Below, in pieces: positions 1 to 35,987 of a DNA stretch of 35,987 bases (positions are counted from its first letter, which is position 1; each line of letters opens with the position of its first letter). The DNA is from a virus. The stretch is from the IMG/VR virus record IMGVR_UViG_3300045988_152087, positions 1 through 35,987 of that record, one strand, 5' to 3'. The notes beneath the pieces were generated by a model. That model was not told the DNA's origin and made no database searches. It was given only the letters and a program-made list of their open reading frames with translations. Position numbers and translations under genes: made by a program.

Positions 1-101
1 GGTGGGCTCGGGCTTCTTGGGCTCGACCGAGGGGGTCGGGGTGGGCTCGGGCTTCTTGGGCTCGACCGAGGGGGTCGGGGTGGGCTCGGGCTTCGGGGTC
101 A
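1..101 (-). repeat. Tandem 39-bp coding repeat (PTPSVEPKKPEPT linker) at the window start
   Basis: The unit ccgaccccctcggtcgagcccaagaagcccgagcccacc (reverse strand) occurs 2+ times. The same unit family ends the window at 35895-35987. Confidence 0.85.
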
Positions 102-1158
102 GGTTCGCGCCGGCGTCAACGCCGAAGCCCTGCTGCACCACCACGCAAGCGCCCTCCTTCATGGCACCACCGTCGAGCTCGACGTGGTTGAAGTACTGGC
201 GCCCCACGACGGCTTTGTCAGGCTGGCCCTGCTCGGCGGCGAAGCGGGTGGGGTAGCGCAGCTGGTAGTTGGTGTTGTTCTGGAACGGGCCGGTCACGGT
301 GTAGGTGGCGGAGTGTCCGTCCTCGCCGTAGGTGGCCGTGATGGTGAACTCGCCGGCGGCGGCCGCGGTGCCGAGCGTCTCATCGACGCCGCTCACGCGG
401 CGGGACCACGTGGTGGCACCGGGCTCGTCGGTGATGAAGTTCATGCCATCGCCGAGGGTGTCGGTGAAGGTGATGGTCTGGGTGCTTCCGTCGAAGGTCT
501 TGCCGAGCTTGGCGGCCGTCTCGTCGTTGGCGCCGAAGTCGATGCCCCAGTCAACGCGGGTGCCGCCGGCGTAGGGGTTGGAGCCCCACTTGGCGAGGGT
601 CCACTGGCTGTCCTGCGGGCCCACGACGCCCTCGCCGTTGGGCGTGGGGACCTGCGTAACGACGCCGTTGGCGGTCATGGTCGCGGGGCCAGCGGCGAGG
701 ACCTTGGACGCGACCACGAAGGCGAACCCGGTGCCATGGAAGTCCGTGTACCCCTCGGCGCGGAGGTTGCCCACCGCGTCTCCGAAGGTGCAGGTGACGT
801 CGTGGCTGCCCAGCTCGCAGGTGCCGATCTCGACGTCGCGGCTGGCGACCGACATGGTGAGAGGCTTGGTCTCACCGGAGCCGAGGGCAGAGAAGCTGTC
901 CCCGAGGCCGATGGTGAAGGTGTCGCCGGGCTTCGGGTCCCCGGACCAGCTGAAGCCGAGGCGTGCGTTGGACCAGAGGGTGAGGCCGCCGTCAACGGCC
1001 GCCCCAGTGCGGTCCACCCGCTGGAGAGTCAGGTCCGACACCGTGACCCGGGGGGTCTCCTCGGCGGCGGCCGAGCCCCAAGGGAGGAGGGCAAAGATGA
1101 GGGCGATGAGGAGGGATGCTGCGACGGTCAACCGCGTCGCTGTTCTTGTAGTGCTCAT
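1..1158 (-). CDS. Cell-wall-anchored surface protein, N-terminal part (signal peptide + MSCRAMM-like domain + PT-rich repeats); runs off the window start
   Basis: Reverse strand translation from ATG at 1158-1156 gives MSTTRTATRLTVAASLLIALIFALLPWGSAAAEETP..., a signal peptide with an AxA cleavage site. It is followed by a ~330-aa Ig-like domain with a TITFTDTLGDG motif resembling the MSCRAMM N2 TYTFTDYVD motif, then (T)PKPEPTPTPSVEPKKPEP repeats. The frame stays open for all 386 codons down to position 1. The long plus-strand ORF 184-1335 is its antisense shadow. Confidence 0.8.
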   Translation of the reverse strand, partial: MSTTRTATRLTVAASLLIALIFALLPWGSAAAEETPRVTVSDLTLQRVDRTGAAVDGGLTLWSNARLGFSWSGDPKPGDTFTIGLGDSFSALGSGETKPLTMSVASRDVEIGTCELGSHDVTCTFGDAVGNLRAEGYTDFHGTGFAFVVASKVLAAGPATMTANGVVTQVPTPNGEGVVGPQDSQWTLAKWGSNPYAGGTRVDWGIDFGANDETAAKLGKTFDGSTQTITFTDTLGDGMNFITDEPGATTWSRRVSGVDETLGTAAAAGEFTITATYGEDGHSATYTVTGPFQNNTNYQLRYPTRFAAEQGQPDKAVVGRQYFNHVELDGGAMKEGACVVVQQGFGVDAGANLTPKPEPTPTPSVEPKKPEPTPTPSVEPKKPEPT

Positions 1159-1165
1159 GTGCTAG

Positions 1166-1210
1166 AGCATAAGAACGGCCCCGACACTGTGTCAAGTGCC
1201 GGGGCCGTTC
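1166..1210 (-). promoter_or_regulatory. Terminator hairpin with embedded sigma70-like promoter (module B) driving a leaderless surface-protein mRNA
   Basis: 15-bp stem 1173-1187/1196-1210 with one wobble and loop tgtgtcaa. On the reverse strand the loop holds TTGACA (1195-1190), then an 18-nt spacer, TATGCT (1171-1166), 7 nt (ctagcac), then ATG 1158. It lies directly downstream of the DUF2800 gene stop at 1229. Confidence 0.55.
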
Positions 1211-1228
1211 AGTTATTCGTGTCGTGTG

Positions 1229-2362
1229 TCACTCGTCCTTCACCAGAGTCGGGGCTGAGGTGCTCAGCTTCAGCAGGTCACCCACGGCGGCGTCCAGGGC
1301 CTTGCGGCCGCCCACGGCCTTCTCCAGCTTGCTGAGCGTGGCCGGCGAGCGGGTGAACGCCTCGTCCTCACTCAGCATCCCGAAGTCCACGAGTGCCTGA
1401 GCGGCCTCCTCGGTGACCGATCGCCGAGCTCGGCCGGGCTTCAGGTGCCAGCCAGGCAGCCCCTCCTCGGTGCCTGCCTGCCGGAGCGCCTCGCGGCGAA
1501 CCGCCTTGCACCAGCCCTCGACCGCCTCGACGGTGCCCATGGCCTCGGCCAGGGTGGCCGGTGAGTAGTCCACAGGGTCAGCGGTCAGCCCGGTCGCGGC
1601 GTCGAGGCCCACAGCCTCGGCGACGAACGCGGCCCGCTCGGGACACCACGGCGCCGCCGGGCAGAACAGGCACCCGCCCTCGCTGGGGACACGCGGCGCA
1701 CCCTCGATCTTGGTGGCTTCGGCCGCCGCGGCCAGCTCCCTGCCCCAAGCGTGCAGCGCCTCGGCAGTCATCACCGCCGTCGATGTGTGCCCACCATCCT
1801 TGTGCCTTGGCTGGACGATGGTCATCCGCACCTCGGAGATGTCCCGCTCCAGCTCGGCATCCTGAAGGGCACCGAGGGCGTAGCACCGCAGCTGCGGGTT
1901 GTCCTCAGCCTCGACGCGCACGCCCCGGCCGAACTTCAGGTCGAGGACGTGCAGCACGCCCTTGTCCGAGATGACCACGGCGTCGGCAGTGCCGTAGACA
2001 CCATCGATGACGAAGACCCGCTTCTCCAGCAGCAGCCTGGCGTGCTTGCGTCCGCCGAGCTCCTCCCAGGCATCGGACACCTTGTCAACGTAGGGCATGA
2101 CGCCGGCCTTCAGCTCGTTGGCGTCGTACTTCTCTCCGTACTCGGCCTTCCACTCCTTCAAGAGCGCGCCCTGGCCCTTCAGCTCGATGCGCTCCCTCAG
2201 GAGAATCTCGGCCAGGGCGTGGGCCGCCGTGCCCTCGGCCGCCGCCTCCGACGTGGTGTCATCAACGGGGCACGCCGCGATGGCTGCGACGGACCCAGGG
2301 CAGGTCATCCACCGCTTGGCCGCTGATGGTCCGAGCGTCGCGTGCGCTGCGGGGCCCGTCAC
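1229..2362 (-). CDS. PD-(D/E)XK nuclease, DUF2800/Cas4-like exonuclease with C-terminal Cys cluster
   Basis: GTG start. DLKFGRG catalytic-like motif and CLFCPAAPWC Cys cluster. This family typically accompanies DUF2815 and DNA polymerase in phage replication modules. The GTG start overlaps the upstream stop (GTGA). Confidence 0.75.
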   Translation of the reverse strand: MTGPAAHATLGPSAAKRWMTCPGSVAAIAACPVDDTTSEAAAEGTAAHALAEILLRERIELKGQGALLKEWKAEYGEKYDANELKAGVMPYVDKVSDAWEELGGRKHARLLLEKRVFVIDGVYGTADAVVISDKGVLHVLDLKFGRGVRVEAEDNPQLRCYALGALQDAELERDISEVRMTIVQPRHKDGGHTSTAVMTAEALHAWGRELAAAAEATKIEGAPRVPSEGGCLFCPAAPWCPERAAFVAEAVGLDAATGLTADPVDYSPATLAEAMGTVEAVEGWCKAVRREALRQAGTEEGLPGWHLKPGRARRSVTEEAAQALVDFGMLSEDEAFTRSPATLSKLEKAVGGRKALDAAVGDLLKLSTSAPTLVKDE

Positions 2363-2781
2363 AATGCCACCACCATCGCGGTAGCGGCGGCCACGTCCTC
2401 GTCCTTCAGCTCGGTAGCCCTGGCGGCCCCGAACTCCTGAAGGACCTGCGCGACCTCGGCGCGCTTGCCAGCCTTCAGGGCGCTACGCATGGCGTCGAGC
2501 AGCGCCTCGCGGGACCCAAGCTCCCCACCTGAGGTCTGCTCCGTGGAGGGGGCGGTCTCGGTAGGGGGGACGGGGGCCGGCCCCTCGGCCTTGGGCTCTT
2601 CGGCTGGCTTGTCCTTGCGGGGGGCACGGCGCTTCGGCTTGGGCGCCCCCTCGGCCGCAGCGGGGTCGGGCTTCTCAGCCGCAGCGGGGGCGCCGGAGGA
2701 GACGAACGGGGCGAGCGCCGCGGTGATCGCGGCCAGCTCGGCGGCGTCCGAGGGGGTGACGTGCAGTGTGATCTTAGCCAT
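2359..2781 (-). CDS. Hypothetical protein, Ala/Pro/Lys-rich low-complexity centre
   Basis: 140-aa ORF MAKITLHVTPSDAAELAAIT... with a weak AGGAA RBS. Its stop overlaps the downstream GTG start. Confidence 0.55.
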   Translation of the reverse strand: MAKITLHVTPSDAAELAAITAALAPFVSSGAPAAAEKPDPAAAEGAPKPKRRAPRKDKPAEEPKAEGPAPVPPTETAPSTEQTSGGELGSREALLDAMRSALKAGKRAEVAQVLQEFGAARATELKDEDVAAATAMVVAL

Positions 2782-2873: not shown

Positions 2874-5255
2874 CTAGTGACTCATCCCCGGCTGAGCCCA
2901 GACGGACAGGCGGGCGCCTCCCCCGCGCGGGTCCCCGACCTGACCCAACGGCTCCCACCCGAGCGCCCGCATCGTGGCAGTCACCGCGCGCACCGTCGTT
3001 CGCTGGGGGAGCTCATCCTTCAGGTCCACCATGAGGGTGGCGGCCGAAACCGGCTGCGGGGTCCATGTCGGGTCCTTGACAAGCATCGCGGTCTCCCGCT
3101 CCACCTTGCCCATCCAGGCGTGGCCCCGCGGGCGAGGCGTCATGATGTACCGGTACACCGGGCCAACCAGAGGGTCCTCCTCAGTGGCCCGCTCGGCCCT
3201 CGCGGACTGCATGACCTGCTCTTCCTCGTCGCTGAGCCACGTGGACTCCCCGCGCTTGAACAGCACGACAGCCTCGGCCCAGATCTGGTCGCGGCGCTCG
3301 GGGGTGAGGAACGCCGTGGGGATGGTCTCCACGATCCGCACGGGCCAGTACCGGCGGTTCCCCTCCTCGTTGGCAAGGAAGTCCTCGTGGTTCGTGGTGC
3401 CCCACACCACGAAGCGGCGGGCCATCGTGCGCGACGTGCGCCCGTACTTCGGCCGCCACGTGTCCGAGCGGGCGGTGAGGAATCGCTTCAGCGCGTCCCC
3501 ATACCGGGAGCCGCTGCGAGTGACCGCGAACCCCTCGTCGGCCTCAACAATCCATGCCTTGTGACACGGGTCGAACAGGTCCGCGTCTCCGCCGAGGATG
3601 TCAGGCAGTGGTGCCGCCCACGGGCCGGCGAGCCAGCGCACCCACGACGTCTTGCGCGTGCCCTGCGGGCCAACGAGGACCAGCGAGGAGTCCACCTGCC
3701 ACCCGGGCCGGTACGCGCGGGCCACGGCCGCCACGCATGCCCGCATCACGGCCCGTGACGCCCAGCGGCGCTCATCCTCGTCGTCGCGGTCCACGCCCGG
3801 CAGCACCTCTTGGAGCGTGGCGGCGCCACCAGACAAGCGCGGCACGCCGTCCCACTCCAGCCGGTCCAGGTATGAGGTCAGCGGGTCGATCTCCCGACCG
3901 GGCTGAGAGGCGGAGAGGCTGAGCAGCTCCCTCACCGTGGAGATCGACGGCACGTCCCCGCCGTAGTGCTTGCCGAGGTACTGCTGCACCGCGGCCTCGT
4001 CCTCGTCCTGATCGGGGTACAGGCCCAGGCGCCGGGCCTCCTGCTCGAACAGCTCGGACTCACTGGCCCACTCTGGCTTGACCCTCCAACCCGGTCGGCG
4101 CCCCATCGCGGAGATGGCCCTGGAGGCGAGCATCGGGTCCATGTCCACGAGCGTCTGGCGGTCCTTGGCGTCGGTGAGCGCCCGCTTGCCCGTCTTGGGG
4201 TTGCGGGGGCTGAGCGCCGCCTCGCACGCCTCGATGGTCAGCGGGCCGTCCGGCTGGGGGCCGGCGTCGAAGGTGGCGGCGGCCATCTCCTCGGCGACGG
4301 CGGGAATCTGCGCTGCGTCCACGCCCATCAGCGCCCGGGAGCGGCGCTCGGCCGGGGGCTTGTCCTGGTCGTCCTGGGCACTGCCGGTCTGAAGGCCGTG
4401 GCGCCACTCGGCCACCAGGTCGAACACGCTCATGGTCTGCCCGTGGGTCGGCGAGGTGCCGGCGTGGTCGAACCACAGCGTGCGATCCTCGTTGACCGGG
4501 GTGAGCCCTGGCTGAGTCTGAGTGGAGTCGATGTGGATGAAACCATTCCCGCAGGGGCGGTAGGGGAGCTGGAACTCCTCGACGGCCTCCTCCATTGAAT
4601 AGGTCCGGTTGAATGCGCCGGCAGCACCGGGGAGCTGAAGCGGGTCCCGGCGGGTGCGGTGCTTCGGTGAATCGGAATTAGCGGGGGCCTGATTGAACAT
4701 CGGGGTGGAGTTGAGAACTGAATCCACCTCGATAGGGTCGCCATTAATGCGGTGTACCTCGACCCCGAACAGCTCGGCGTTCGAACCCGGGATGATGTGT
4801 GGGAGGAAAAAGCGGTGGCACCCCGCCATGGCGGACGGGTCGACAATTACGCCGAGCTTCTCCGCCGCCCATTTCACGAGGGTCGGATAAGCGCCGGGGT
4901 GAACAGGGCGATCAATGGCGATGATGACCCGGAGCCGAGGGCGCTCGGCGGTGTGGGATGCGGTCGTGTGGACAACGGAGTCCCACCCCTGCCGGCGGAG
5001 CCGCTCAGGCACGTCATGCGGCACGTCCTGGTCCAGGTCGAGCACGACGGCGGTGTGCTCGACGACGTTCTCCGCCGTTGCGCGGGGGGCCCTCAGCGTC
5101 CCCACGAACACGCCGGGGACGGACCGAGGGTCCTTCTCCAAGACGGGGGCGGAGGCTGCGAGGTCGGTGAAAGTGTCTAGGGTCCACTCCTTCTGGCGGT
5201 AGTCCCCGCTCGCGAGGGGGGAGGCCAGGGACACTGGAATGGTGATGGCGGTCAC
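2874..5255 (-). CDS. DNA primase-helicase (N-terminal prim-pol-like domain + C-terminal VirE/P4-type NTPase)
   Basis: 793 aa with a GTG start. Walker A GPQGTRKTS sits in the C-terminal half and VirE-like motifs (FVVWGTTNHEDFL) follow. Size and position next to the other replication genes fit. Confidence 0.65.
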   Translation of the reverse strand: MTAITIPVSLASPLASGDYRQKEWTLDTFTDLAASAPVLEKDPRSVPGVFVGTLRAPRATAENVVEHTAVVLDLDQDVPHDVPERLRRQGWDSVVHTTASHTAERPRLRVIIAIDRPVHPGAYPTLVKWAAEKLGVIVDPSAMAGCHRFFLPHIIPGSNAELFGVEVHRINGDPIEVDSVLNSTPMFNQAPANSDSPKHRTRRDPLQLPGAAGAFNRTYSMEEAVEEFQLPYRPCGNGFIHIDSTQTQPGLTPVNEDRTLWFDHAGTSPTHGQTMSVFDLVAEWRHGLQTGSAQDDQDKPPAERRSRALMGVDAAQIPAVAEEMAAATFDAGPQPDGPLTIEACEAALSPRNPKTGKRALTDAKDRQTLVDMDPMLASRAISAMGRRPGWRVKPEWASESELFEQEARRLGLYPDQDEDEAAVQQYLGKHYGGDVPSISTVRELLSLSASQPGREIDPLTSYLDRLEWDGVPRLSGGAATLQEVLPGVDRDDEDERRWASRAVMRACVAAVARAYRPGWQVDSSLVLVGPQGTRKTSWVRWLAGPWAAPLPDILGGDADLFDPCHKAWIVEADEGFAVTRSGSRYGDALKRFLTARSDTWRPKYGRTSRTMARRFVVWGTTNHEDFLANEEGNRRYWPVRIVETIPTAFLTPERRDQIWAEAVVLFKRGESTWLSDEEEQVMQSARAERATEEDPLVGPVYRYIMTPRPRGHAWMGKVERETAMLVKDPTWTPQPVSAATLMVDLKDELPQRTTVRAVTATMRALGWEPLGQVGDPRGGGARLSVWAQPGMSH

Positions 5256-5833
5256 GATTTATCTCTCTCTAGGTTGTGGTCGGGGGTCCGTCACCCATCA
5301 AGGCGGGGCGGAGCGGCTTGGCCCGGACGCTACCATGATGGTGGGGAACCTTGCAAGGGGAAACGTTGCAACGACGCGGCGCTACTAGGTTGACTAGGTA
5401 AATGGGGCGAAATCGGTGAAACTTTGCGCGCCGTCAGGTAACGATTCGTTACCCTCGTGTCCCAGGTCATATGACCGAGCGGATATATCGGCGTCGTGAT
5501 CTACCCAACCGGGCGGAAGCGTGTCCGCTGGGCCCGAGATGGCGCGATTTCGCGCACCTAGCACGAACCTAGTGGACCCGGAATCGGCGGAATGACGCCA
5601 AAAAGTCCCCCCTTCTACTAACTACTACCTTCTTTCTATAGAGAGTAGAGAGAGAGAGTAAAGGAATGGTAAAGAAAAAGGGGGAGAGAACTATACGCGG
5701 GCGCGCGCGAGGCAGCGGCTTGTGACTGGGGTCACGCTGCACCGGGGCCGGCCCCCGCCAACGGTCGTGGGGGCGACCCACGTGGCGCGGACCACACTTG
5801 CGCGCTCAGCGCCCCATCGAGTACGCTGGAGCC
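5256..5833. promoter_or_regulatory. Divergent control/origin-like region between the leftward primase operon and the rightward HNH/late genes
   Basis: Perfect palindromes GGTAACGATTCGTTACC (5437-5453), GGTCATATGACC (~5465-5476), CGTTGCAACG (~5351-5360) and GCGCGATTTCGCGC. CTAGGTTG occurs twice and ACCTAG twice. A polypyrimidine-to-polypurine tract spans ~5590-5690 and is markedly AT-rich. Dyad GTGACTGGGGTCAC lies at 5722-5735. TTGCGC-N18-TACGCT-N6-ATG sits before the HNH start. Confidence 0.6.
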
Positions 5834-6265
5834 ATGACGCCGACCATGCCGCCCACGAGATGCACCCAGCCGGGGTGCACGCGCTTGACCCCCTCCGGCG
5901 CATCGAGGTGCCCCACCCACGCCAGCCGGACCCCCTCGGCACACACCCGGTGGCTCCAAGCCCACCCCTCCCACCGAGCCCCCTGGGCCTCCCTGCGTAC
6001 CCGGACCCTCCAGGCACACCCCTCCTGCCAGTGGCCGGGCTGCACCGCCCCGAGCACCGAGGTGGACCACATCGTGGAGATCGCCGACGGGGGCGCATTC
6101 CTCGACGAGGGAAATGTTCAGGCTCTTTGCCGTGAGCACCACGAGCGCAAGACAGCAATCGCAGCTGCGAATCGAAAAGCGAATAGCACTCGGCTCCGCA
6201 AGGCGAAGGGCAAAGCCGTTAAGCGCAAGCCGCGCATTCCACGCGACGCGACTTGGGTCGAGTAA
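5834..6265 (+). CDS. HNH endonuclease (terminase-associated)
   Basis: CQWPGC...VDHIVEIADGG...NVQALCREHHERKT is an HNH motif. The ORF-track start at 5798 is a TTG; the ATG at 5834 (MTPTMPPTRC...) is preferred. Position next to terS fits cos-type phages. Confidence 0.8.
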   Translation: MTPTMPPTRCTQPGCTRLTPSGASRCPTHASRTPSAHTRWLQAHPSHRAPWASLRTRTLQAHPSCQWPGCTAPSTEVDHIVEIADGGAFLDEGNVQALCREHHERKTAIAAANRKANSTRLRKAKGKAVKRKPRIPRDATWVE

Positions 6266-6585
6266 AGCCTCAACAATCGAGGCACACACAAAATCAAAAA
6301 AATACAAAACTGATTCAACGTGGAGTCGAGAAACCGAAACGGCGACGAAGCCGAACGGGGGATTGAAAAAGCCGGAGGGGCGTTCCACAAAAACAAAACA
6401 CGCCGCCAGGGGGGCGCGCCCGTCATTCCAAGCCAAAAACTCGGCATTCGGCCCCTCTTGCGCACGGGCGCGAGGCGTGCTAGGCTGATCCCACCGCCGG
6501 GCGCAGACCCACATCGAGGATCGAAGCTTGCACTACGGGGTAGCGTCCGGCGGCTCCCTACCGATCAGATTCCGAGGAGCCGACG
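6266..6585. other. A-tract-rich non-coding region; candidate cos / terminase recognition site
   Basis: Runs such as caaaatcaaaaaaatacaaaac, gaaaccgaaacgg, gattgaaaaagcc, cacaaaaacaaaacac and agccaaaaactc sit in an otherwise ~67% GC genome, between HNH and terS. The terS RBS gaggag lies at ~6574. Confidence 0.45.
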
Positions 6586-7065
6586 ATGAGCCGCAAAGCC
6601 GGTCAGAGCGTGAGTGACGCCCGCCTTCCGCGTGGGCTCCGGCTCGTGGACGACTCGGTGCCGGAGAAGGCCACGATGCACACCGCGGCGGCGTTGCCGC
6701 GGGACGCCGATCGGCTCGCGCCCCCCTCGACGCTGAGGGCGGACCTGCACCCCCTGTGGGACGAGATCACGGGCTCGCTCCACGCGAGCGGCCTCCTGGC
6801 CGCCGCGGACACCACGATGGTGGCACTCCTGGTTCAAGAGCTAGAGCTCTACACAATCGCGGTTGGCACCGCCCGCGCAGAGGGCGTGATCCTCTACAGC
6901 GAGAAGGGCACCCCGGTCGCCAACCCGGCGTTTTCCATCGCCTCGACTCACGCCCGCGTAATCGAGGGGCTGTGCAAGACGATGGGCCTTACCTTCGTGG
7001 CCCGTGCGGCGATGGACGCACCAGAGTCTGTGAAGGCGAAGGCCGGCAACCCGTTCGCCGTCTAG
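6586..7065 (+). CDS. Terminase small subunit (P27 family)
   Basis: 159 aa, immediately upstream of the large terminase. Sequence character matches P27-family terS (LHPLWDEI..., VANPAF). Confidence 0.7.
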   Translation: MSRKAGQSVSDARLPRGLRLVDDSVPEKATMHTAAALPRDADRLAPPSTLRADLHPLWDEITGSLHASGLLAAADTTMVALLVQELELYTIAVGTARAEGVILYSEKGTPVANPAFSIASTHARVIEGLCKTMGLTFVARAAMDAPESVKAKAGNPFAV

Positions 7066-7074
7066 CCTGAACCC

Positions 7075-8799: not shown

Positions 8800-8818
8800 T
8801 TCACCGTAGGATTGACAC

Positions 8819-25018: not shown

Positions 25019-25054
25019 ACTGGTCCTCAGCCCGCAAGGCCGAATGGAGGAATC

Positions 25055-27668: not shown

Positions 27669-27692
27669 TGGTCTGTGCCTTTCGGGGTTGGG

Positions 27693-27914: not shown

Positions 27915-28210
27915 AGCTTGGTGTCCTTTCTCTGGATGAACATGCCTGAGTCGATGTCGATGAGGAGGCTGGCGAAGTAGTCGTACCCGTCGTAGGTGAG
28001 ATCGGGGATGACGCCGTGGGCGACGATCTCGCCGTCGGTGCGGATGCTGAAGGCAACGGAGTCGTTGTCCAGCACCTCGGCGTAGAACACGGAGCGGCTG
28101 AGCTGGTTCGGCTTGATACCGACCACGTGCCCGCCCTCGCGGACCAGATGGCCTTCGTACCTGAGGGCCATGTCCATCGACTGCATGATCTGGAGCGTGT
28201 CGTTTGCCAT
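27911..28210 (-). CDS. Hypothetical protein
   Basis: 99-aa ORF of ordinary composition. Its stop overlaps the downstream GTG. Confidence 0.5.
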   Translation of the reverse strand: MANDTLQIMQSMDMALRYEGHLVREGGHVVGIKPNQLSRSVFYAEVLDNDSVAFSIRTDGEIVAHGVIPDLTYDGYDYFASLLIDIDSGMFIQRKDTKL

Positions 28211-29436: not shown

Positions 29437-29699
29437 TGGGCGACCCCCGCGATCTCCCGCAGCTCCGCCGGGCGGTAGCCGCTCAGCGTGCGGACAAGAG
29501 CGCCTGAGTCGTCCCGCACCTCAACCAACGGCGCGCTGGTCATACCGAGCGCCTTAGCGTTGCTGAGCGCCAGAGCGGACTCAGGGCTTCCGTCGGTTAG
29601 AGAGCGCTCATCGTAGGCAAGGCCTAGCTTGTCGATCATCTTCATAGTGAGTCGGCAGGGCTGGCAATTGGGCTGGTGAAAAACGGTGATGTGCTTCAT
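29433..29699 (-). CDS. nrdH: NrdH-like glutaredoxin/redoxin
   Basis: VFHQPNCQPC carries the CxxC active site, and size and fold fit NrdH-redoxin. Confidence 0.75.
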   Translation of the reverse strand: MKHITVFHQPNCQPCRLTMKMIDKLGLAYDERSLTDGSPESALALSNAKALGMTSAPLVEVRDDSGALVRTLSGYRPAELREIAGVAH

Positions 29700-29710: not shown

Positions 29711-30172
29711 TTAGTCGTGCTTGCCGGCAATCTTGCAGATTCCCCGGACAAGCTTGGTGGTTGCGTCAGACAGCCGGGTGTGGAACCGGGCTACCCCGAT
29801 CTCCCGCCCCCGGTCGAGGACGATGATGGCGTTACGCGCCCGGTTGTAGTCGAGGGACACCTCGCGGCTGATCGCTTCAGCTCCGCAGCCCTCGGCGGAG
29901 CCCCCCATCGCTTCGGCGATGCGAGCTCGCAGGGCCCCGGGCAGGAGTCCCGCGTCGGCAAGGGCGAGAACCTCACCGATGGTCCACTCAGGCCGTCGGG
30001 CCAGGCGCTCGGACAGGTTCCCCGCCTTGGCGCCGAGCGGGTCCGCGATCCGCTTCATGTCCCGCAGGTAGTACTGCCCCCGGTGGTATGCGAGGTCCTC
30101 TAGGTGGTCGCAGATTTCTGAGGTGGCGCGCGCGTCCTGCTCGACGGCGCTGGGGCTGAGTCGGCGTCTCAC
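29711..30172 (-). CDS. Hypothetical protein
   Basis: GTG 30172 overlaps the upstream TGA (GTGA). 153 aa. The longer ORF-track call would overlap the upstream gene. Confidence 0.45.
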   Translation of the reverse strand: MRRRLSPSAVEQDARATSEICDHLEDLAYHRGQYYLRDMKRIADPLGAKAGNLSERLARRPEWTIGEVLALADAGLLPGALRARIAEAMGGSAEGCGAEAISREVSLDYNRARNAIIVLDRGREIGVARFHTRLSDATTKLVRGICKIAGKHD

Positions 30173-30504
30173 TGGGAAACCACCTCCGCGAAGTCCCGCG
30201 CGAACCAGTCCGCCGCCTTGCTCGCGAGGCCACCACGCCCCGTTCGGGAGTAAGCGTGAATGCGACCCGACTCCGTGGTGGTCCGGCCAGTCGGTGACCA
30301 CTCAATCGCTCGCAAGGTCCAGTGTCCGCGGTTATCCACGCCGAAGCTCTTCGAGGTGCGCGTCGCCCCTCTCTTCTCGTCAAAGAAGACGCAAACGCTC
30401 TTCGGCGTGACTCGGATGTCCTTGACGTGGGCAGGGAGCACGGCTCGGAGTGCCCGCTCCATCTCCTTGGCAAAGTCCTCGATGACGATGGTTTGTGTCG
30501 CCAT
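30169..30504 (-). CDS. Hypothetical protein
   Basis: ATG 30504 is preceded by strong RBS aaggagg. 111 aa, MATQTIVIEDFAKEMERALR... Confidence 0.55.
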   Translation of the reverse strand: MATQTIVIEDFAKEMERALRAVLPAHVKDIRVTPKSVCVFFDEKRGATRTSKSFGVDNRGHWTLRAIEWSPTGRTTTESGRIHAYSRTGRGGLASKAADWFARDFAEVVSQ

Positions 30505-30559: not shown

Positions 30560-32524
30560 CTAGTCAAGTTCATCCGCGTCCGTGAGCTTCCTGTAACGGT
30601 CCACGACGCCGCCGGCAGCGCGCAGGTGCAGGCCCGGCGCCCACGGCAGGTCGGAGCTCATGATGTCCCGAACCTTGTGGAACGCCTCGATGCCGGCGGA
30701 GGACGGCTTTCCGGCCGCGTAGTCCCACCACTCAGCAGGCCCCTTTATGAGCACCTCATCGTGGACGTGGGCCACGATCTCGAACCCCGCGCGATCGAGC
30801 CGCACCATTGCAGATGCCAGGCAGTCGCGGGCCACGGCCTGCACGAGGTTCTCCGTCAGGCGACCGCCGAACGTCTCGACGGCGATGCCGCGGCGCGCGT
30901 CCCAGAACGCCACGGACGGGCGGCCCCAGCGGTCCTGCGTCGCACGGATGCCTCGGTAGATCAGGGTTCGGCCGCTCGGCAGCAGCATCCTGCGGAAGGC
31001 TCGGCCGAAAGAGTCCTGCCCGGCGACGATGCGCTCCCCGCCAGTTCGGAACTCGCGGCCGAGCTGGTCCCACAGCGCCGTGATGTGGGGGTTCGCTCGG
31101 CGCCATGCGTCCACCTGGGCCTGAAGCGCCTCGTCGCTCGGGCCGTCGCCTGCGAACACGCGCAGACCGTTCGGACCCGCGCCGTAGCCGCAGCCGAGCA
31201 GGGCCGTCTTACCCTCCTGGCGAGTCATCTCGTGGCCGACGGCGGAGCTCATGCGCGATGCCGTCTCGACGTAGAGGTCACGCTTGGCCTCGTAGGCGTC
31301 TAGCACCCATTGCTCGCCGGCGAGCCAGGCAAGCACGATAGCCTCGATGGAGGTGTAGTCGCAGACGATCAGGGGGCCGGCAATGACCGAGCGCACGCAC
31401 GCCGCAACCTCGACCGGGGTTACCAGCTCGCCGAGCAGGCACTTGTCGAGCACGTCGTCAACCGTCTCTCCCTCGGGCAGATGCTCCCGGGGGAGGTTCT
31501 GCGGCTGGAAGCCGCTCCCGCTCCAGCGGCCGGTGTGGGCGCCGAGGTAGCGGAGAGTCCCACGCGCTCGGTTGCCGGCGCCCCGTCGCAGCTCGGCCGC
31601 CGCGAGCTTCTTCCCCGCGACGCGGGCGGACGCCACTCGCAACTCAGCGACGCGACGCACCTCGGCCGGTAGCGACTCGTCCGCGGCCAGGCGCTCAACG
31701 GTCTCTCGGCGTAGATCGGGGAGGTTGATCCCCTTCGACGCGAACCACGTGCACAGCTGGGCGGTGCTGTTCGGGTTGGCGAGGCCGGTGATGCTCTTCA
31801 ACTCCTCCGCCTGTCGGCTCACGTTGTCGTCCTCGCAGCGCTGAAGGGCGTGCAGCAGCTCGACATCGAGGGGGAGGCCGGCATCCGTGATCTTCTCGGC
31901 GGTGAGCTCGACGGCGCGCTCCAACGCCGAGGGGGACAGGTCGATAGCCTGCCACTCGCGCTCCAGCGCGCGGTGCGCCTGCCGGAGGACCTCGACGTCC
32001 TGGATGCCGTAGGCGCGGAACTCAGTCCAGCGCTCGGGGTCATCGCTCGGCATGCGTCGGCCGCCGCGGAACGTCTTGGTCGCCGGCTGCGGCTTGGCGA
32101 AGCGGTTAATGAGGAGCGTCCCGGCCGTGTCCTTGTCCTCACACTTCAGCGCCTTGGCGAGGCTCTTCAGCGAGCTGGGGAGGCCGAGGAGGTACGCCCA
32201 GTGCATGGTGTCGATCCACTCGGCGGGGTCGAGGTAGTTGCCAGTGGCGCGTCCGTGGGTGTACGCGCTGACCTGGATTCGGTCGAACGCAGCGTTGTGA
32301 GCGACCTTGGTAACCGCAGGGTCCTGGATGAGGCCCAGGAACTCACCCCACAGCTCGGGGTCATGGCCCTCGGTGGTGGGCCCCTCGGTGATCTTCACAG
32401 GCTTGTCGTCGAGCGCCCACATCGCGAGGGTGATGCAGGCTTCAGGGCTCTCAGCGTAGCGGTGCGCGCCGGCCGAGATATCGATGTCGGAGTAGGTCTC
32501 AGTGTCTAGGTAAAGGGTTGGCAT
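30560..32524 (-). CDS. DNA polymerase I family (3'-5' exonuclease + family-A polymerase)
   Basis: Exo I motif LYLDTETYS, motif B RQEGKTALLGCGYGAG and motif C HVHDEVLI are present. The alternative start GTG 32590 overlaps the DUF3310 stop (GTGA) and would place hairpin 32538-32584 inside codons 3-19. Confidence 0.8.
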   Translation of the reverse strand: MPTLYLDTETYSDIDISAGAHRYAESPEACITLAMWALDDKPVKITEGPTTEGHDPELWGEFLGLIQDPAVTKVAHNAAFDRIQVSAYTHGRATGNYLDPAEWIDTMHWAYLLGLPSSLKSLAKALKCEDKDTAGTLLINRFAKPQPATKTFRGGRRMPSDDPERWTEFRAYGIQDVEVLRQAHRALEREWQAIDLSPSALERAVELTAEKITDAGLPLDVELLHALQRCEDDNVSRQAEELKSITGLANPNSTAQLCTWFASKGINLPDLRRETVERLAADESLPAEVRRVAELRVASARVAGKKLAAAELRRGAGNRARGTLRYLGAHTGRWSGSGFQPQNLPREHLPEGETVDDVLDKCLLGELVTPVEVAACVRSVIAGPLIVCDYTSIEAIVLAWLAGEQWVLDAYEAKRDLYVETASRMSSAVGHEMTRQEGKTALLGCGYGAGPNGLRVFAGDGPSDEALQAQVDAWRRANPHITALWDQLGREFRTGGERIVAGQDSFGRAFRRMLLPSGRTLIYRGIRATQDRWGRPSVAFWDARRGIAVETFGGRLTENLVQAVARDCLASAMVRLDRAGFEIVAHVHDEVLIKGPAEWWDYAAGKPSSAGIEAFHKVRDIMSSDLPWAPGLHLRAAGGVVDRYRKLTDADELD

Positions 32525-32537
32525 GGCTATAGAATAT

Positions 32538-32584
32538 GACGAAGCCCCCGGTGTCCGCAAGTTCTGCGGCCCGGGGGCTTCGTC
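32538..32584 (-). promoter_or_regulatory. Hairpin (14-bp perfect stem gacgaagcccccgg/ccgggggcttcgtc, nested inner stem) with TTGCGG-N18-TATTCT-N6-ATG leaderless promoter candidate
   Basis: Seen directly. The stem sequence matches the hairpin at 12888-12929. On the reverse strand it is followed by aTATTCTatagccATG. Confidence 0.45.
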
Positions 32585-32586
32585 AC

Positions 32587-32814
32587 TCACTCATCCCCTA
32601 GTCTCTTCAGTTCCCTGTTGATGTACCACCTCGCTTTCTTCAGGTCCTCGATGGTCTTCATCGCGTCCTTGCGCCCTGCTCGGGCGATGTACTTGACCGC
32701 GTTCCCGCGGTTGAAGTTCAGGTTCTCCGTGATGTCGATGACCTCGGCGCCGTTGGACCATCCCTCGGCGTAGTGGCTGGGGTGGTTCACCGAGTCACGT
32801 GCGTCTCGGCCCAT
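32587..32814 (-). CDS. DUF3310 family protein
   Basis: PSHYAEGWSNGAEVIDITENLNFNRGNAVKYIARAGRKDAMKTIEDLKKARWYI matches the DUF3310 signature (PSHY...GNaiKYi.Ra.rK). Confidence 0.7.
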   Translation of the reverse strand: MGRDARDSVNHPSHYAEGWSNGAEVIDITENLNFNRGNAVKYIARAGRKDAMKTIEDLKKARWYINRELKRLGDE

Positions 32815-33068
32815 CGTCTCGCCCCCTCTGTCGTGTCGATTGTGGTGACTGGGTGGCCCATGGCCTCGAGGTGCCGGTGGACCATCTTCTGCGACTCCCT
32901 TGGCACCTCGCCAGGGGCCTTGAGCTCGACTAGCCTCGTCTCCCCATTCGGGAGGAGGATCAGCCGGTCGGGGAGCCCCCTCATCGTGGGGGCTAGCTTG
33001 ATCGCTAGACCCCCGCGGGCGCTGACCGCTGCGACCAGCGCCCGCTCAACTGGGGTCTCGGGCCTCAC
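32787..33068 (-). CDS. VRR-NUC domain nuclease
   Basis: GLPDRLILLPNGETRLVELKAPGEVPRESQKMVHRHLEAMGH is VRR-NUC-like. Confidence 0.65.
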   Translation of the reverse strand: MRPETPVERALVAAVSARGGLAIKLAPTMRGLPDRLILLPNGETRLVELKAPGEVPRESQKMVHRHLEAMGHPVTTIDTTEGARRWAETHVTR

Positions 33069-33637
33069 ATCAGACCCGCGAGGGGGTCCTCGTCAGCGGC
33101 CGGCTGACTGGCGGACGGCTGGGCGGGGCCGAACAGGCTCTCTGCCGAGGCGGCTCCCCCGCCGAAGCGCTCACCACCACCGAGGATCTGGACCATCTGG
33201 AGCCCGAAGGAGACCCCCTTGGACCCATCCACCTCGTAGGCGAAGGCACGAACCGCGACGCGGGCCTTCTGGCCGCCGTATACCTCCTCGGCGATCTGCT
33301 CGTCGGAGAACGGGAGGAGGTCCGTGCCCACGATCGGCACTCGGCGGATCGAGGAGGCGTTGAAGGTGATGTGCCCGGCCTGCTCCTCGTAGTCGCTGTT
33401 GTCCCCGTCCTTCAGCGGGGTACGCAGGCTCTTCGGGACCTTGGTGCCCCACTTCTCGGCGGCGGCCTCGCGGACGGCGCCCTTCAGGGCCTCGATGGTG
33501 GTGGTGTCACTCTTGGGGACCATGACGGCGGTGGAGACCTTGGGCTTGCTGTTGCCGTTGCGGGCCTCCAGCTCCGCCAGGTGGGGCCAGGACAGGGTTG
33601 CAGGGCCAGTGGTGACGTCGACGCTCATGCGTTTTCC
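33065..33637 (-). CDS. DUF2815 family protein (phage ssDNA-binding-like)
   Basis: ATG 33637 with RBS gagaggaaaa. The N-terminus MSVDVTTGPATLSWPHLAELEA matches the DUF2815 start. The longer ORF-track call to 33874 would engulf the overlapping HTH ORF. Confidence 0.65.
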   Translation of the reverse strand, partial: GKRMSVDVTTGPATLSWPHLAELEARNGNSKPKVSTAVMVPKSDTTTIEALKGAVREAAAEKWGTKVPKSLRTPLKDGDNSDYEEQAGHITFNASSIRRVPIVGTDLLPFSDEQIAEEVYGGQKARVAVRAFAYEVDGSKGVSFGLQMVQILGGGERFGGGAASAESLFGPAQPSASQPAADEDPLAGLM

Positions 33638-33867
33638 TCTCGGGTTTGGTTGGTGTTGGGGCGACGGCGGGCGAACTTGCCCGCCCAGCGCATCGCTGTC
33701 TGCGTGGTGACTCCGACCTCTCGGGCGATCATGGGCCACGGGAGGCCCAGCTTGTGGAGCCGGTTGAGCGCCCGGCGGCGCTCGGTGGTGAAGCGGGAGA
33801 GACTCGTCTCCTGCTTCTCGATCAGGTTGCGGAGGTTGTCCACCTCCTTGCGGATATCGTCGTCCAT
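33625..33867 (-). CDS. Small HTH DNA-binding protein
   Basis: 80 aa; LGLPWPMIAREVGVTTQTAMRWAGK is a helix-turn-helix. It overlaps the DUF2815 start by 13 nt. Confidence 0.5.
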   Translation of the reverse strand: MDDDIRKEVDNLRNLIEKQETSLSRFTTERRRALNRLHKLGLPWPMIAREVGVTTQTAMRWAGKFARRRPNTNQTREENA

Positions 33868-33870: not shown

Positions 33871-35325
33871 TCAAATATATGCGAGGTCATCCGAATCGGT
33901 CAAGTTGACACCCCCGTGTTCCTCATCACTCAGGCCGAGCGTGGTGAACACCGTCCGCTGGATGTCCGCCTTGCGGCCCAGCGCGTCCCAGATCGCGGAA
34001 GCGATAGACGGCTCTCCGCGGCCGTACACCGGCACGTTGAACTGGCAGGACACACTCTCCGCCGTCTGGCCTGGCCGGGCGAGTCGGGCGTTAGCCTGCT
34101 CCCACAGCTCCAGCGACCACGGCAAGCAGGACCACACCAGCGACTCACCCCCGAACTGGAGGTTGAGCCCGTGACCCGCTGACGCCGGGTGGGCGATAAG
34201 CACGTCAAGGTTGCCGGCGTTGAACGCCGCGCGGTCCTCGGCGCGCTTGGCCGAGCCGATGCGCATCTCCCGCAGCTGAGCCCGCAAGTACGGTTCCTCG
34301 TGCCTGAACCACGTCATCACCAGAACGCCGCGGCCAGTGACCTTCAGGCGAGCGCGCACGGCCGAGGCCGTGTAGTCCAGAGCCGGCCGAATGCGGTCCA
34401 CCTGAACCAGCTCGGGCTCAGCATCGGGGTCGAGCGGCGGCCGATACCAGATCGCCCCAGTGGTGAGCTGGTGCATCAGGTTCGCCACGGCACCCGGCCC
34501 CGACGTGTAGACCTCGCGCCCGTCGGGCAGGTGCGTCACGCCGTCGGCGAGCAGCTCCCTGCTCATGCGGACCGCCTCGCACCCCATGGTCGGGGTGAGC
34601 GCCTGGTAGGCCACCCCGGGAAGCACGAGCCCCTCGCCGGCCTCGGCGTATCGCATCACGTCGGACGCCTTGAGGATAAGCCGCCGCATCGCCCCGGGGC
34701 GCGGCTCGCGGCCGACTCGGGCGCCTGTGGGGATCATCCGCCCCTCGGTGAGGTACTCGTCGCGGGCACGGGTGACCGTCTTGCCAAGGCGCTCCCCACC
34801 GTCGAGCATCCGCACCAGCGACCACACCCCGATCGGATCATGGCCTGGGGTGCCGGTCAGCAACCACAGACGGTCGGCCGCCGAGGCCAGCTCCCGCAGC
34901 GCTCGGGCACGCTGGGACTCACCCCGGCTCGCCGAGGGGGTCATGTACCCGCTGGCCTCATCGACCACTACCGTTCTCCACGTGGTGTCGCTGAGCACGG
35001 CATCCCGGATCGAGGCGCTGGAGAGCACCACGACGTCGGCCAGCGTGTCGTCCAGAGCGGCGCGGCGCTTCGACGCTGGCGTGCGCGGGGCGGCCTCTAC
35101 GACGAGCGGGATGCTGCGGCGCTCGGCCTCGTCAGACCACGTGGACTCACTGACCGTCGGGGGTGCCAGGACGAGGGCTGGGAAGGAGTCAGCGGGCAGG
35201 TCCGCGAGCGCCCGCAGCGTCGTCCACGTCTTTCCGGTGCCCATGCCCGCGATGAGGAGACCCCTCGGGTGGCTGACGAGCCATTCCCGGGAGGTCTCCT
35301 GCTCCGGTGTGAGGGCCGCTGTCAC
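33871..35325 (-). CDS. SNF2-family helicase (DEAD/DEAH-like ATPase + helicase C domain)
   Basis: Walker A GMGTGKT, VVVDEASGY and helicase-C motif HPASAGHGLNL are present. GTG 35325 overlaps the upstream stop (GTGA). Confidence 0.8.
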   Translation of the reverse strand: MTAALTPEQETSREWLVSHPRGLLIAGMGTGKTWTTLRALADLPADSFPALVLAPPTVSESTWSDEAERRSIPLVVEAAPRTPASKRRAALDDTLADVVVLSSASIRDAVLSDTTWRTVVVDEASGYMTPSASRGESQRARALRELASAADRLWLLTGTPGHDPIGVWSLVRMLDGGERLGKTVTRARDEYLTEGRMIPTGARVGREPRPGAMRRLILKASDVMRYAEAGEGLVLPGVAYQALTPTMGCEAVRMSRELLADGVTHLPDGREVYTSGPGAVANLMHQLTTGAIWYRPPLDPDAEPELVQVDRIRPALDYTASAVRARLKVTGRGVLVMTWFRHEEPYLRAQLREMRIGSAKRAEDRAAFNAGNLDVLIAHPASAGHGLNLQFGGESLVWSCLPWSLELWEQANARLARPGQTAESVSCQFNVPVYGRGEPSIASAIWDALGRKADIQRTVFTTLGLSDEEHGGVNLTDSDDLAYI

Positions 35326-35735
35326 AGCGGTAGACCCCTCCGCACGAGGCATGCGACCATGCCGAGGTTCAGCACGTCATCACCGTCGGGCAGGCCGTCG
35401 GTGCGGTGGGCGAAGTCGTCGAGGCACAGCAGCAGCTCATCGGCGCTGGCCGTCTCTCCGGCCGCGCAGCACTCGTAGGCAACGCGGGCCGGCTCGCCCT
35501 GGGCGCCGATGGGGTCTCCGAGGCTGCGGTCGATCTCGCGGCACAGCACGAGGGCCGACTCGCAGACCGATGCGACGCGCTCAGCGCTCGCCGGCGCCGC
35601 CCCCTGGTCGAGGGCGAAGTGCAGCGAGGACGTCAGCGCCCGCGCCTTCTGCGCCGCGCGCATGTGGCCATAGGGGATGCTTGCCAGCTCAGCGGCGGAT
35701 GCCCGCTGAACCATCTCAAATGTTGGGTTGCTCAT
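35322..35735 (-). CDS. Hypothetical protein, first gene of the early leftward operon (leaderless start)
   Basis: ATG 35735 (MSNPTFEMVQ...) lies 7 nt downstream of the TATGCT -10 of promoter A. The ORF-track start at 35771 would lie inside the promoter. Confidence 0.5.
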   Translation of the reverse strand: MSNPTFEMVQRASAAELASIPYGHMRAAQKARALTSSLHFALDQGAAPASAERVASVCESALVLCREIDRSLGDPIGAQGEPARVAYECCAAGETASADELLLCLDDFAHRTDGLPDGDDVLNLGMVACLVRRGLPL

Positions 35736-35742
35736 GTGCCTA

Positions 35743-35786
35743 AGCATAGAATCGGCTCCCCGCCTTGTCAAGAGGGGAGCCGATTC
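35743..35786 (-). promoter_or_regulatory. Terminator hairpin with embedded sigma70-like promoter (module A)
   Basis: 13-bp perfect stem 35749-35761/35774-35786 with loop gccttgtcaaga. On the reverse strand the loop holds TTGACA (35771-35766), then a 17-nt spacer, TATGCT (35748-35743), 7 nt (taggcac), then ATG 35735. It lies directly downstream of the surface-protein stop. Confidence 0.6.
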
Positions 35787-35799
35787 AGTTCCTATTGGG

Positions 35800-35987
35800 T
35801 CAGTGGTTGCGGCGGTTGCGGACGAGGAGTCCCGCGCCGACCAGGGCCGCGGCCGTGAGCAGTGCTCCGCCGGCCGCGATTCCGGTGTGGGCGAGCTGTG
35901 GGGTCTCGGCCGAGGGGGTCGGGGTGGGCTCGGGCTTCTTGGGCTCGACCGAGGGGGTGGGCTCGGGCTTCTTGGGCTCGACCGAGG
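35800..35987 (-). CDS. Cell-wall-anchored surface protein, C-terminal part (PT repeats + LAHTG sortase motif + TM + basic tail); enters from the window end
   Basis: Reverse translation gives ...SVEPKKPEPTPSVEPKKPEPTPTPSAETPQLAHTGIAAGGALLTAAALVGAGLLVRNRRNH*. LAxTG is the class-E sortase signal of Actinobacteria. Confidence 0.8.
   Translation of the reverse strand, partial: SVEPKKPEPTPSVEPKKPEPTPTPSAETPQLAHTGIAAGGALLTAAALVGAGLLVRNRRNH

Follow-up and report, generated by a model that had tools for sequence, protein, structure and literature searches.

Surface adhesins encoded by phages are usually discussed as lysogenic-conversion genes. The LPXTG surface protein SasX is carried on a Staphylococcus prophage, and prophage conversion genes are expressed from the lysogen. 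Very few precedents stand behind the premise, adopted in the first-pass annotation of the DNA described here, that LPxTG adhesins of phages are normally genes of this type. With regard to virulent phages, the siphovirus T5 makes the lipoprotein Llp soon after infection, which is targeted to the envelope and blocks the receptor FhuA (PMC9586334, 10.64898/2026.03.26.714494). The Cutibacterium acnes siphoviruses PA6, PAD20 and PAS50 have neither integrase nor repressor and pseudolysogeny has been seen in them, and no putative virulence factors were reported in the same paper (PMC3094311). More generally, the HK97-like cos siphoviruses of Actinobacteria present a common gene order of HNH, TerS, TerL, portal, S78 protease and HK97 capsid.

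The genome analysed here resembles each of these systems in part. It follows the gene order of the HK97-like cos siphoviruses, but among 50,697 deposited phage genomes no DNA similarity was detected beyond ~100-150 bp of the tape measure gene; its TerL is closest to those of Curtobacterium phage Elener and Arthrobacter phage Shambre1 (47-49% identity). With the C. acnes phages it shares an actinobacterial host, a size of ~30-36 kb, the layout of a rightward structural/lysis and a leftward early arm and the lack of integrase and repressor, whereas there is no detectable DNA similarity, an adhesin is carried here and pseudolysogeny has been reported for the C. acnes phages. Like prophage surface-protein conversion genes such as sasX, the adhesin gene is phage-carried, of the sortase type, variably present and equipped with its own promoter; unlike them, it lies among early replication genes in a genome devoid of lysogeny apparatus. 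T5 Llp appears to be the best functional analogy, since both would be a virulent siphovirus's own envelope protein, here with a targeting read from the sequence and a putative early timing. Llp is a small outer-membrane lipoprotein, whereas the protein considered here is a 437-aa, sortase-type, two-domain adhesin of a phage with a Gram-positive host, with no homology to Llp.

A complete genome in two arms

The window, that is, the whole stretch of 35,987 nt that was analysed, contains one complete genome, that of a common oral Actinomyces phage without cultured representatives. Its ends lie inside a gene and carry a 32-bp terminal overlap (bases 35956-35987 duplicate bases 1-32) within a tandem Pro-rich repeat, as might be expected of an incomplete contig that had lost a lysogeny module in assembly, an explanation whose probability, like that of a defective or helper-dependent element, is negligible. 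These possibilities are refuted by the closed circle of 35,955 bp, in which the adhesin gene runs in frame across the joined ends, by the independent contig L049, which is broken elsewhere and is collinear with the window across the end junction, by dozens of independent assemblies measuring 35-37.5 kb, and by the presence of all essential modules. The packaging, head, tail, lysis and replication modules were all recognised with Pfam, so that the absence of capsid, tail or packaging genes that marks satellites is not seen, and the dependence on a helper that the first-pass annotation had offered as one option is contradicted.

The genome is probably that of an HK97-like siphovirus that is virulent and non-integrating and belongs to an abundant, uncultured family. 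The host is best explained as an oral Actinomyces of the naeslundii/oris/viscosus group, a prediction based on adhesin homology and G+C content. The phage family is abundant in human oral metagenomes.

The rightward arm contains the structural and lysis genes. It opens with an HNH endonuclease gene (5798-6265(+)), a correction to the earlier ORF inventory, as is the finding that the antisense ORF 5806-6072(-) is spurious. The HNH gene lies upstream of TerS in a block that continues with TerL, portal, S78 prohead protease and HK97-type major capsid protein (5798-12874(+)), the portal protein having a Mu F-like C-terminus. The head-tail joining and tail genes (13006-22202(+); gene calls, fn3 domain) include the overlapping chaperone ORFs (15889-16248(+) and 16200-16631(+)), the tape measure (16624-19239(+)), which has homologues with PhageMin_Tail and matches Arthrobacter phage tape measures, and the distal tail proteins (19252-22202(+)). 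These are followed by an Amidase_2 endolysin (22239-23129(+)), three fibre-like proteins that contain repeats or tracts of collagen-like sequence (23148-25018(+)), a holin-like protein (25055-25261(+)), the all-beta, fibre-like protein p516, which is the largest unknown (25508-27058(+)), and a membrane/coiled-coil protein (~27066-27413(+)).

The leftward arm, with the early and replication genes, ends at two small proteins (27468-28210(-)), a membrane protein of 66 aa and another protein of 99 aa, neither of which has matches in Pfam, PHROGs or NCBIfam. Upstream of these are encoded an exonuclease with a metallophosphatase domain (phrog_284; 28279-29436(-)), a thioredoxin/glutaredoxin-like protein (29433-29699(-)) and a hypothetical protein whose 196-aa frame (29711-30301(-)) has no matches in the same three libraries and whose product is likely to be 115 aa, from a start at 30058. 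The family A DNA polymerase with its 3'-5' exonuclease domain (Pfam; 30560-32590(-)) is accompanied by a DUF3310 protein (32587-32814(-)), a weakly VRR-NUC-like protein (32787-33068(-)), an Enc34-type ssDNA-binding protein (DUF2815; 33065-33628(-), with an uncertain start in a frame open to 33874), an 80-aa HTH protein (33625-33867(-)), a SNF2-type helicase (Pfam; 33871-35352(-)) and p137, an acidic protein that is conserved in relatives and has no Pfam, PHROGs or NCBIfam match (35322-35735(-)). Across the joined ends, past the adhesin gene, the arm contains a DUF2800/PD-(D/E)XK nuclease (Pfam; 1229-2362(-)), p140 (2359-2781(-)) and a VapE-type primase/helicase (Pfam; 2874-5255(-)).

The adhesin and its promoter

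The adhesin gene spans the window ends (1-1158(-) and 35800-35987(-)) and encodes 437 aa once the 32-base overlap is removed. Its 5' part (ATG at 1158-1156) encodes a signal peptide (aa 1-32, MSTTRTATRLTVAASLLIALIFALLPWGSAAA), which is read directly from the sequence and conserved in homologues, a head of two domains, Big_8 and DUF7926 (Pfam; aa ~33-353), and the first Pro-rich PTPSVEPKKPE repeats (window positions 1-~100, with a tandem repeat at 1-94). The 3' part continues the Pro-rich repeats and closes with the sorting signal LAHTG-IAAGGALLTAAALVGAGLLV-RNRRNH, formed by the motif (35881-35895), a hydrophobic segment and a basic tail, before the stop codon (35800-35802). The adhesin reported in the first-pass annotation is real and has a sortase-type sorting signal, but it is not an LPxTG protein. 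LAXTG is the motif of class E sortases, for which Actinomyces is listed (PMC8225981).

An AlphaFold model of the head is all-beta, with pLDDT mostly >80, in keeping with tandem IgG-like domains that bind a ligand. Foldseek matched it to Cna, RspB, SdrC, Cnm, Ace, ClfA/B and SdrG (E 7e-13 to 1e-7, with ~1e-12 for Cna and SdrC), members of the MSCRAMM class of adhesins on Gram-positive surfaces, and the best 40 PDB fold matches are all heads of MSCRAMM or Als adhesins, with TM-scores of only 0.3-0.5, probably because the orientation of the domains differs. The likeness to solved MSCRAMMs (Cna, SdrC, ClfA, SdrG, Ace, Cnm) is one of fold, with a sequence identity of only 10-17%. No homologue of the adhesin was found in the 50,697 deposited phages, nor outside this phage family in IMG/VR. 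A chromosomal DUF7926/DUF5979 surface protein of A. viscosus and A. naeslundii is 42-45% identical and also carries LAxTG, and in A. viscosus its gene sits between housekeeping genes. The phage protein differs from these host homologues in being phage-encoded and in lacking their DUF5979 stalk domain and long Thr/Pro linker. The ancestor of the phage family may have acquired its adhesin as the ligand-binding head of such a surface protein, taken from an Actinomyces chromosome.

Every intact phage copy retains the signal peptide and the LAxTG sorting signal, as do the host homologues. In the relatives L032 and L035 independent internal deletions have left pseudogenes; in all other phage copies these two elements, the head and the promoter are intact. 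These two losses indicate that the adhesin is dispensable. Together with an omega of ~0.25 for the head, which points to purifying selection and is above that of neighbouring genes (0.14-0.15), they could suggest that the gene is a decaying, non-functional hitchhiker. This seems very unlikely given an omega of 0.06-0.29 among close relatives and the integrity of all functional elements elsewhere, across phage lineages whose adhesins are only 58-66% identical.

Alternatively, the main job of the adhesin might be superinfection exclusion or receptor masking, as for T5 Llp, with a stalk-less head close to the wall that blocks a receptor or traps rival phages. The collagen-like tail fibres of such rivals are a possible target, since proteins that bind collagen (Cna, RspB, Cnm and Ace) head the list of fold matches. 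The phage's own fibre-like proteins have collagen-like tracts. The missing stalk domain and the production of the envelope lipoprotein by T5 soon after infection (PMC9586334, 10.64898/2026.03.26.714494) are also in line with this role. However, the adhesin is not homologous to any known exclusion protein, the phage's own progeny would likewise be caught on cell debris by a fibre trap, and selection is mostly purifying rather than arms-race-like, which makes exclusion as the main function improbable.

With regard to expression, a promoter-like element precedes the adhesin gene (1166-1195(-), TTGACA-N18-TATGCT) at 7 nt from the ATG, and the mRNA is predicted to be leaderless. Its hexamers and the 7-nt spacing are kept in 12 of 12 loci of the family against a drifting spacer sequence. 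The element is of the same type as those of the replication genes, such as the one at 2835-2864, between the genes of p140 and the VapE-type primase/helicase, and the next early element (35743-35771(-), TTGACA-N17-TATGCT, 7 nt before the ATG at 35735), which starts directly past the adhesin stop codon. Six consensus promoter-like sites were found, with ~1.2 expected, and all are in the leftward arm; the + strand of the late arm (19.5 kb) has none. No terminator-like site separates the adhesin stop (35800) from the next promoter, so that among the features of morons or accessory conversion genes the gene has its own promoter and a variable presence (L032 and L035) but lacks its own terminator. 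Promoter type and position suggest that the adhesin is an early gene. A host-type promoter that looks constitutive would equally suit expression in a carrier state.

Lysogeny and maintenance functions

The first-pass annotation had reported no integrase, repressor, excisionase or partition system, which is borne out by three HMM libraries. Scans with Pfam, PHROGs and NCBIfam profiles covered every ORF with coding-type GC3, including the regions 27468-28210, 29711-30504 and 35322-35735, which that annotation had singled out for such searches. No divergent recombinase emerged among the hypothetical ORFs, and the scanned ORFs encode no recognisable tyrosine or serine recombinase or DDE transposase, no ParA/ParB, plasmid Rep or protelomerase, and no excisionase or CI/Cro-type repressor. 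The divergent intergenic region (5256-5797), which contains an AT-rich tract at ~5600-5690, has no convincing coding signal by GC3 and only small ORFs without matches, and a CI/Cro switch was not found there. The sole regulator-like match in the window is the weak HTH of the 80-aa protein (HTH_23 at E 1.4e-4, below the Pfam cut-off; phrog_36 at E 0.009), which matches transposase models of NCBIfam in their HTH part only and is encoded within the replication operon, behind a promoter-like element at 33874-33903. The relatives contribute no lysogeny genes to the pan-genome either: the genes that they have and the window lacks are only tail fibre, methylase and small hypothetical ORFs, with no integrase or transposase.

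The search for integrated copies in host genomes that the first-pass annotation had proposed also yielded none. Among the 5.8 billion cluster representatives searched, ~88 capsid clusters of at least 53% identity were all on contigs of at most 37.5 kb, and the first capsid match on a chromosome-sized contig had 32% identity. Furthermore, no copy of the phage was detected in 185,579 species genomes, one per species, by two scans that started from peptide patterns. A cryptic temperate route, through an unrecognised recombinase or through the host XerCD at a dif-like site, is therefore disfavoured and appears extremely unlikely, although several proteins have no assignable function and the CTX phage, as cited in PMC3094311, uses the host Xer. 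The only unknowns large enough for a recombinase are all-beta or fibre-like. By itself, the lack of lysogeny genes is ordinary. The likeliest reason is simply that the phage is virulent and establishes lysogeny neither through integration nor as a partitioned plasmid.

Persistence as an unintegrated, unpartitioned episome over generations deserves closer consideration, and in such a pseudolysogenic or carrier state the adhesin would be a conversion factor of carrier cells. Pseudolysogeny occurs in C. acnes phages that lack integrase and repressor (PMC3094311) and have the same layout of arms, the adhesin gene resembles conversion genes in having a host-type promoter to itself, and the small hypothetical proteins and the HTH protein could be regulators. 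Nevertheless, no repressor or maintenance function was found in the profile scans, and no isolate genome assembly includes an extra contig with the phage; the records labelled 'ncbi' are derived from metagenomes. Moreover, since the adhesin promoter is of the replication-gene type, nothing points to selective expression in a quiescent state. The carrier state is thus considered unlikely, while having a real share of the probability.

A proposed role in the lytic cycle

The best explanation, with a probability of roughly 0.6, is a virulent, non-integrating phage with a dispensable, early, accessory 'lytic-conversion' adhesin. The absence of integration, repressor and partition genes, together with the gene's own early promoter, makes it most likely that the adhesin acts in the lytic cycle and changes the surface of the infected cell. 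In the first-pass annotation it was stated that the adhesin must act during productive infection or in a carrier state. Action during productive infection is the best fit to a conserved sigma-A-type promoter like that of the replication genes and to the lack of integrated copies, but 'must' is overstated for a gene that two relatives have lost by independent deletions.

As predicted from the sequence, the host sigma-A RNA polymerase would transcribe the adhesin gene from its own promoter, alongside the replication genes, giving a leaderless mRNA. The product would be exported by Sec through its signal peptide and cut at LAHTG by the host housekeeping class E sortase, which would leave the two-domain head joined to peptidoglycan through a short stalk rich in Pro. 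Finally, the altered surface might shift what the infected cell sticks to in the latent period, most plausibly holding it in dense plaque beside new hosts; alternatively, the adhesin might mask or occupy a receptor. In either form, the adhesin would raise phage fitness without being needed for multiplication.

A bolder version, which is tentative and has somewhat less than even odds, is that a strictly lytic oral phage family re-dresses its host with a stalk-less MSCRAMM head anchored by the host sortase, thereby steering the position in plaque or the access of phages. The idea becomes directly testable once a host is found, as the family contains natural adhesin-deletion variants. If true, Gram-positive systems would thereby gain their first 'lytic-conversion adhesin', and 'virulence-like' genes in viromes would not be reliable signs of temperate phages. 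Virulent phages could then influence how bacteria adhere and how biofilms, dental plaque among them, are organised in space.

Genome organisation and completeness

The window (67% G+C) is organised in two divergent arms, with genes called by third-position G+C bias (GC3) and functions assigned by profile searches of the ORFs against Pfam, PHROGs and NCBIfam. The rightward arm (5798-27413, plus strand) carries packaging and head genes (HNH endonuclease, small and large terminase, portal, S78 prohead protease, HK97-type capsid protein), tail genes including that of an 871-aa tape measure protein and, distally, genes for an amidase endolysin, fibre-like proteins and a holin-like protein. The leftward arm, on the minus strand from 5255 to 1 and then from 35987 to 27468, encodes a VapE primase/helicase and a DUF2800 nuclease, then the adhesin, and further on an SNF2 helicase, an Enc34-type ssDNA-binding protein, a DUF3310 protein, a family A DNA polymerase, a thioredoxin-like protein and an exonuclease, along with small proteins without assigned function. 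There are no tRNA genes in the window. A near-identity DNA search of 50,697 deposited phages returned no close relative, only ~100-150 bp of similarity in the tape measure gene.

The first 32 bases of the window are identical to the last 32 and lie within a tandem Pro-rich repeat; when this overlap is removed, the two parts of the minus-strand adhesin gene (1-1158 and 35800-35987) join in frame. Since, in addition, an independent contig with its break at another position (L049) is collinear over the junction, differing only in repeat number, the window is a complete genome of 35,955 bp, assembled as a circle and opened within the adhesin gene, and an incomplete genome is disfavoured. The same cut site is found in several related contigs, with at least three in IMG/VR ending there (L050, L051 and L054). 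The repeat (1-94 and 35921-35987) consists of 39-nt and 33-nt units, and its true number is uncertain because both the cut and the 32-bp terminal overlap fall inside it.

The HNH gene (5798-6265, plus strand) lies directly upstream of TerS, an arrangement typical of cos-type HK97-like packaging. Of the non-coding stretches on either side, that between the divergent arms (5256-5797) contains an AT-rich tract (~5600-5690) with AGAGAG repeats and palindromes, and the other (6266-6585) is A-rich with a terminator-like hairpin on the minus strand (6396-6421); both are candidate sites for an origin, a late promoter or cos. Two ORFs with misleading GC3 or length, a minus-strand 88-aa ORF (5806-6072) and a 260-aa ORF (5732-6514), were dismissed as spurious antisense readings of the HNH gene, and the existing annotation of one relative (L041) called the wrong strand in this region. 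The portal (8959-10944, plus strand; 661 aa as called, 641 aa in relatives) appears to be a portal-MuF fusion because of a weak Mu F-like C-terminal domain. The prohead protease gene contains a 15-nt tandem repeat (11039-11142, plus strand; GAGGACGAGAAGCCC; 6.9 copies, 97% matches) encoding EDEKP, and the overlapping plus-strand ORFs 15889-16248 and 16200-16631, directly ahead of the tape measure gene, look like the usual tail-chaperone pair with a programmed frameshift. The gene order at 22239-25261 (plus strand) is unusual, with the endolysin (22239-23129) followed by three fibre-like genes and then the holin-like gene (25055-25261). The fibre-like genes carry a 45-nt repeat (23273-23375) and a collagen-like GPAGPPGRPGDAGP tract within 24078-24515.

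Lysogeny and partition genes in the window and its family

The first-pass annotation had reported no integrase, repressor, excisionase or partition system, and this is confirmed across all ORFs: none matched a tyrosine or serine recombinase, transposase, ParA/ParB, protelomerase, excisionase or CI/Cro repressor in Pfam, PHROGs or NCBIfam, and the small ORFs at 27468-28210, 29711-30504 and 35322-35735 likewise gave no recombinase or Par match. The sole regulator-like match was an 80-aa protein within the replication operon (33625-33867, minus strand), with HTH_23 below threshold. No credible coding signal was found in the divergent region 5256-5797, whose small ORFs have poor GC3 and no profile matches and on these grounds were discounted as Cro/CI candidates.

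Only three proteins without assigned function, named here by their length in residues, are large enough to conceal a recombinase: p516, p306 and p196. In its model, p516 (25508-27058, plus strand) combines a helical N-terminus with a long all-beta body, and it matched no recombinase-like fold. Because its fold search gave no match at E ≤0.001, the best plausible one being an R2 pyocin fibre (E 5.6e-3), p516 is described only as all-beta, fibre-like and not a recombinase. With its 15-residue repeats p306 looks fibre-like, and the real product at p196 is probably a 115-aa protein. PDB sequence searches with these three proteins and the adhesin head yielded no significant match. The p516 gene, unusually placed after the holin, has homologues on phage-sized contigs only. 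Within the family, p516 falls to 50-54% identity while the capsid protein stays at 95-100% (contigs L036-L039), a divergence pattern like that of receptor-binding proteins, and more distant homologues (33-38% identity) are found in other contig groups, of ~44 kb and ~56 kb. This mosaicism against near-identical capsids suggests exchange of a host-range determinant.

Integrated copies in host genomes, which the first-pass annotation had named as contrary to its reading, were also sought. The capsid protein, searched against 5.8 billion protein clusters, matched ~88 clusters at ≥53% identity from many independent assemblies, whose longest contigs group at 35-37.5 kb and never above; the first match on a chromosome-sized contig was at 32% identity, in Demequina. 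The 'ncbi' records behind two of the capsid clusters are metagenome-derived assemblies and were therefore rejected as isolate carriers. No relatives were found in two pattern-seeded scans of 185,579 species genomes (one per species), and none of the 20 related loci in IMG/VR lies on a contig longer than 37.9 kb. Cryptic integration is thus disfavoured. Moreover, a screen for genes absent from the window in ~610 kb of related loci, and in family loci fetched later, returned nothing beyond a tail-collar fibre, DNA methylases and small ORFs without assigned function. Given that neither integrated copies nor lysogeny genes were found among the relatives, the entire family is without recognisable lysogeny apparatus, on evidence that is negative but broad. 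Taken alone, such an absence is ordinary. No published description of this family was found in the literature searched.

In some relatives (L002, 9156-10025; L035, 14419-14787) a gene for a C-5 cytosine DNA methylase lies between those for the polymerase and the exonuclease; the window lacks it, and it may have an accessory role against restriction. Others have accessory ORFs of 144-154 aa without window counterpart (L052, 221-655 and 3506-3967; L057, 3124-4001), with no Pfam match in two representatives. These ORFs lie around DUF2800 and between p137, a small protein gene next to the adhesin, and SNF2, sites which may be early-arm hot spots for accessory genes.

Origin, timing and role of the adhesin

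The joined adhesin (437 aa) comprises a signal peptide, Big_8 and DUF7926 domains, PTPSVEPKKPE repeats, an LAHTG motif, a hydrophobic segment and an RNRRNH tail. LAXTG is the motif of class E sortases, and Actinomyces is among the genera using it (PMC8225981). In the AlphaFold model, for which 22 sequences were aligned, the head (pLDDT mostly >80) matches the two-domain ligand-binding regions of Cna, RspB, SdrC, Cnm, Ace, Bbp, FnBPA, ClfA/B and SdrG with E values of 7e-13 to 1e-7 and modest TM-scores (0.3-0.5), which are attributed to differing domain orientation.

The closest homologues (58-90% identity, ~415 aa) are all on contigs of 31-38 kb. Below them, at 42-45% identity, are proteins of ~592 aa from A. 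viscosus, A. naeslundii and Actinomyces oral taxon 170. Like the phage copies, these host proteins carry an LAxTG signal, but they also have two parts missing from the phage copies, a DUF5979 domain and a long Thr/Pro linker. The A. viscosus gene, flanked by argS-lysA and hom-thrB-rho, is in an ordinary chromosomal location. The comparison points to these Actinomyces as the likely host group and suggests that the phage took up the head of a host surface protein long ago. Within IMG/VR this adhesin type is confined to the family, and no homologue was found among the 50,697 deposited phages.

A promoter-like element, TTGACA-N18-TATGCT, ends 7 nt from the adhesin ATG. Its hexamers and 7-nt spacing are kept in each of the 12 family loci examined, and only the sequence of the spacer drifts. 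Upstream of p137, the HTH gene and p140 (another protein without assigned function) lie further elements of this type, with the same 7-nt spacing for p137 and HTH. The leftward arm has six such sites against ~1.2 expected by chance, and the plus strand of the 19.5-kb late arm has none. From these elements, shared with other early-arm genes, we infer that the adhesin would share the early temporal class of the replication genes and be transcribed by host sigma-A polymerase into a leaderless mRNA.

The median dN/dS of the adhesin head is 0.25 (0.06-0.29 among close relatives), and that of the flanking DUF2800 and SNF2 genes 0.14-0.15. Because synonymous divergence is similar for all three, the adhesin has co-diverged with the genome, under purifying selection. 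Two relatives, L032 and L035, nevertheless have independent internal deletions in the adhesin gene, of ~999 bp and ~951 bp, whose breakpoints differ. The L032 frame reads through the signal peptide and 24 further residues to a stop codon, with the anchor out of frame; in L035 the deletion is joined at PKP microhomology, leaving the signal peptide out of frame. The promoter-like element is intact in both. This pattern points to a useful but dispensable gene.

The first-pass annotation had proposed that the adhesin acts in productive infection or a carrier state, or that the element depends on a helper. This interpretation is partly supported: the first possibility holds up best, the simplest reading being a virulent phage whose accessory early gene would alter the surface of the infected cell during the lytic cycle; helper dependence is disfavoured. 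A carrier state, as in the C. acnes phages, which also have no integrase (PMC3094311), is a live rival. If the adhesin does act in the lytic cycle, the favoured benefit would be retention or aggregation of the infected cell in dental plaque, ahead of receptor masking or exclusion. Functionally, the closest analogue is T5 Llp, an envelope protein of a virulent siphovirus made shortly after infection (PMC9586334; 10.64898/2026.03.26.714494), although the two share no homology and their anchor chemistry differs. No description of a sortase-anchored adhesin or MSCRAMM in a virulent or non-integrating phage was found in the literature searched. What makes the family noteworthy is a host-derived, sortase-anchored adhesin in the early arm of phages that do not integrate.
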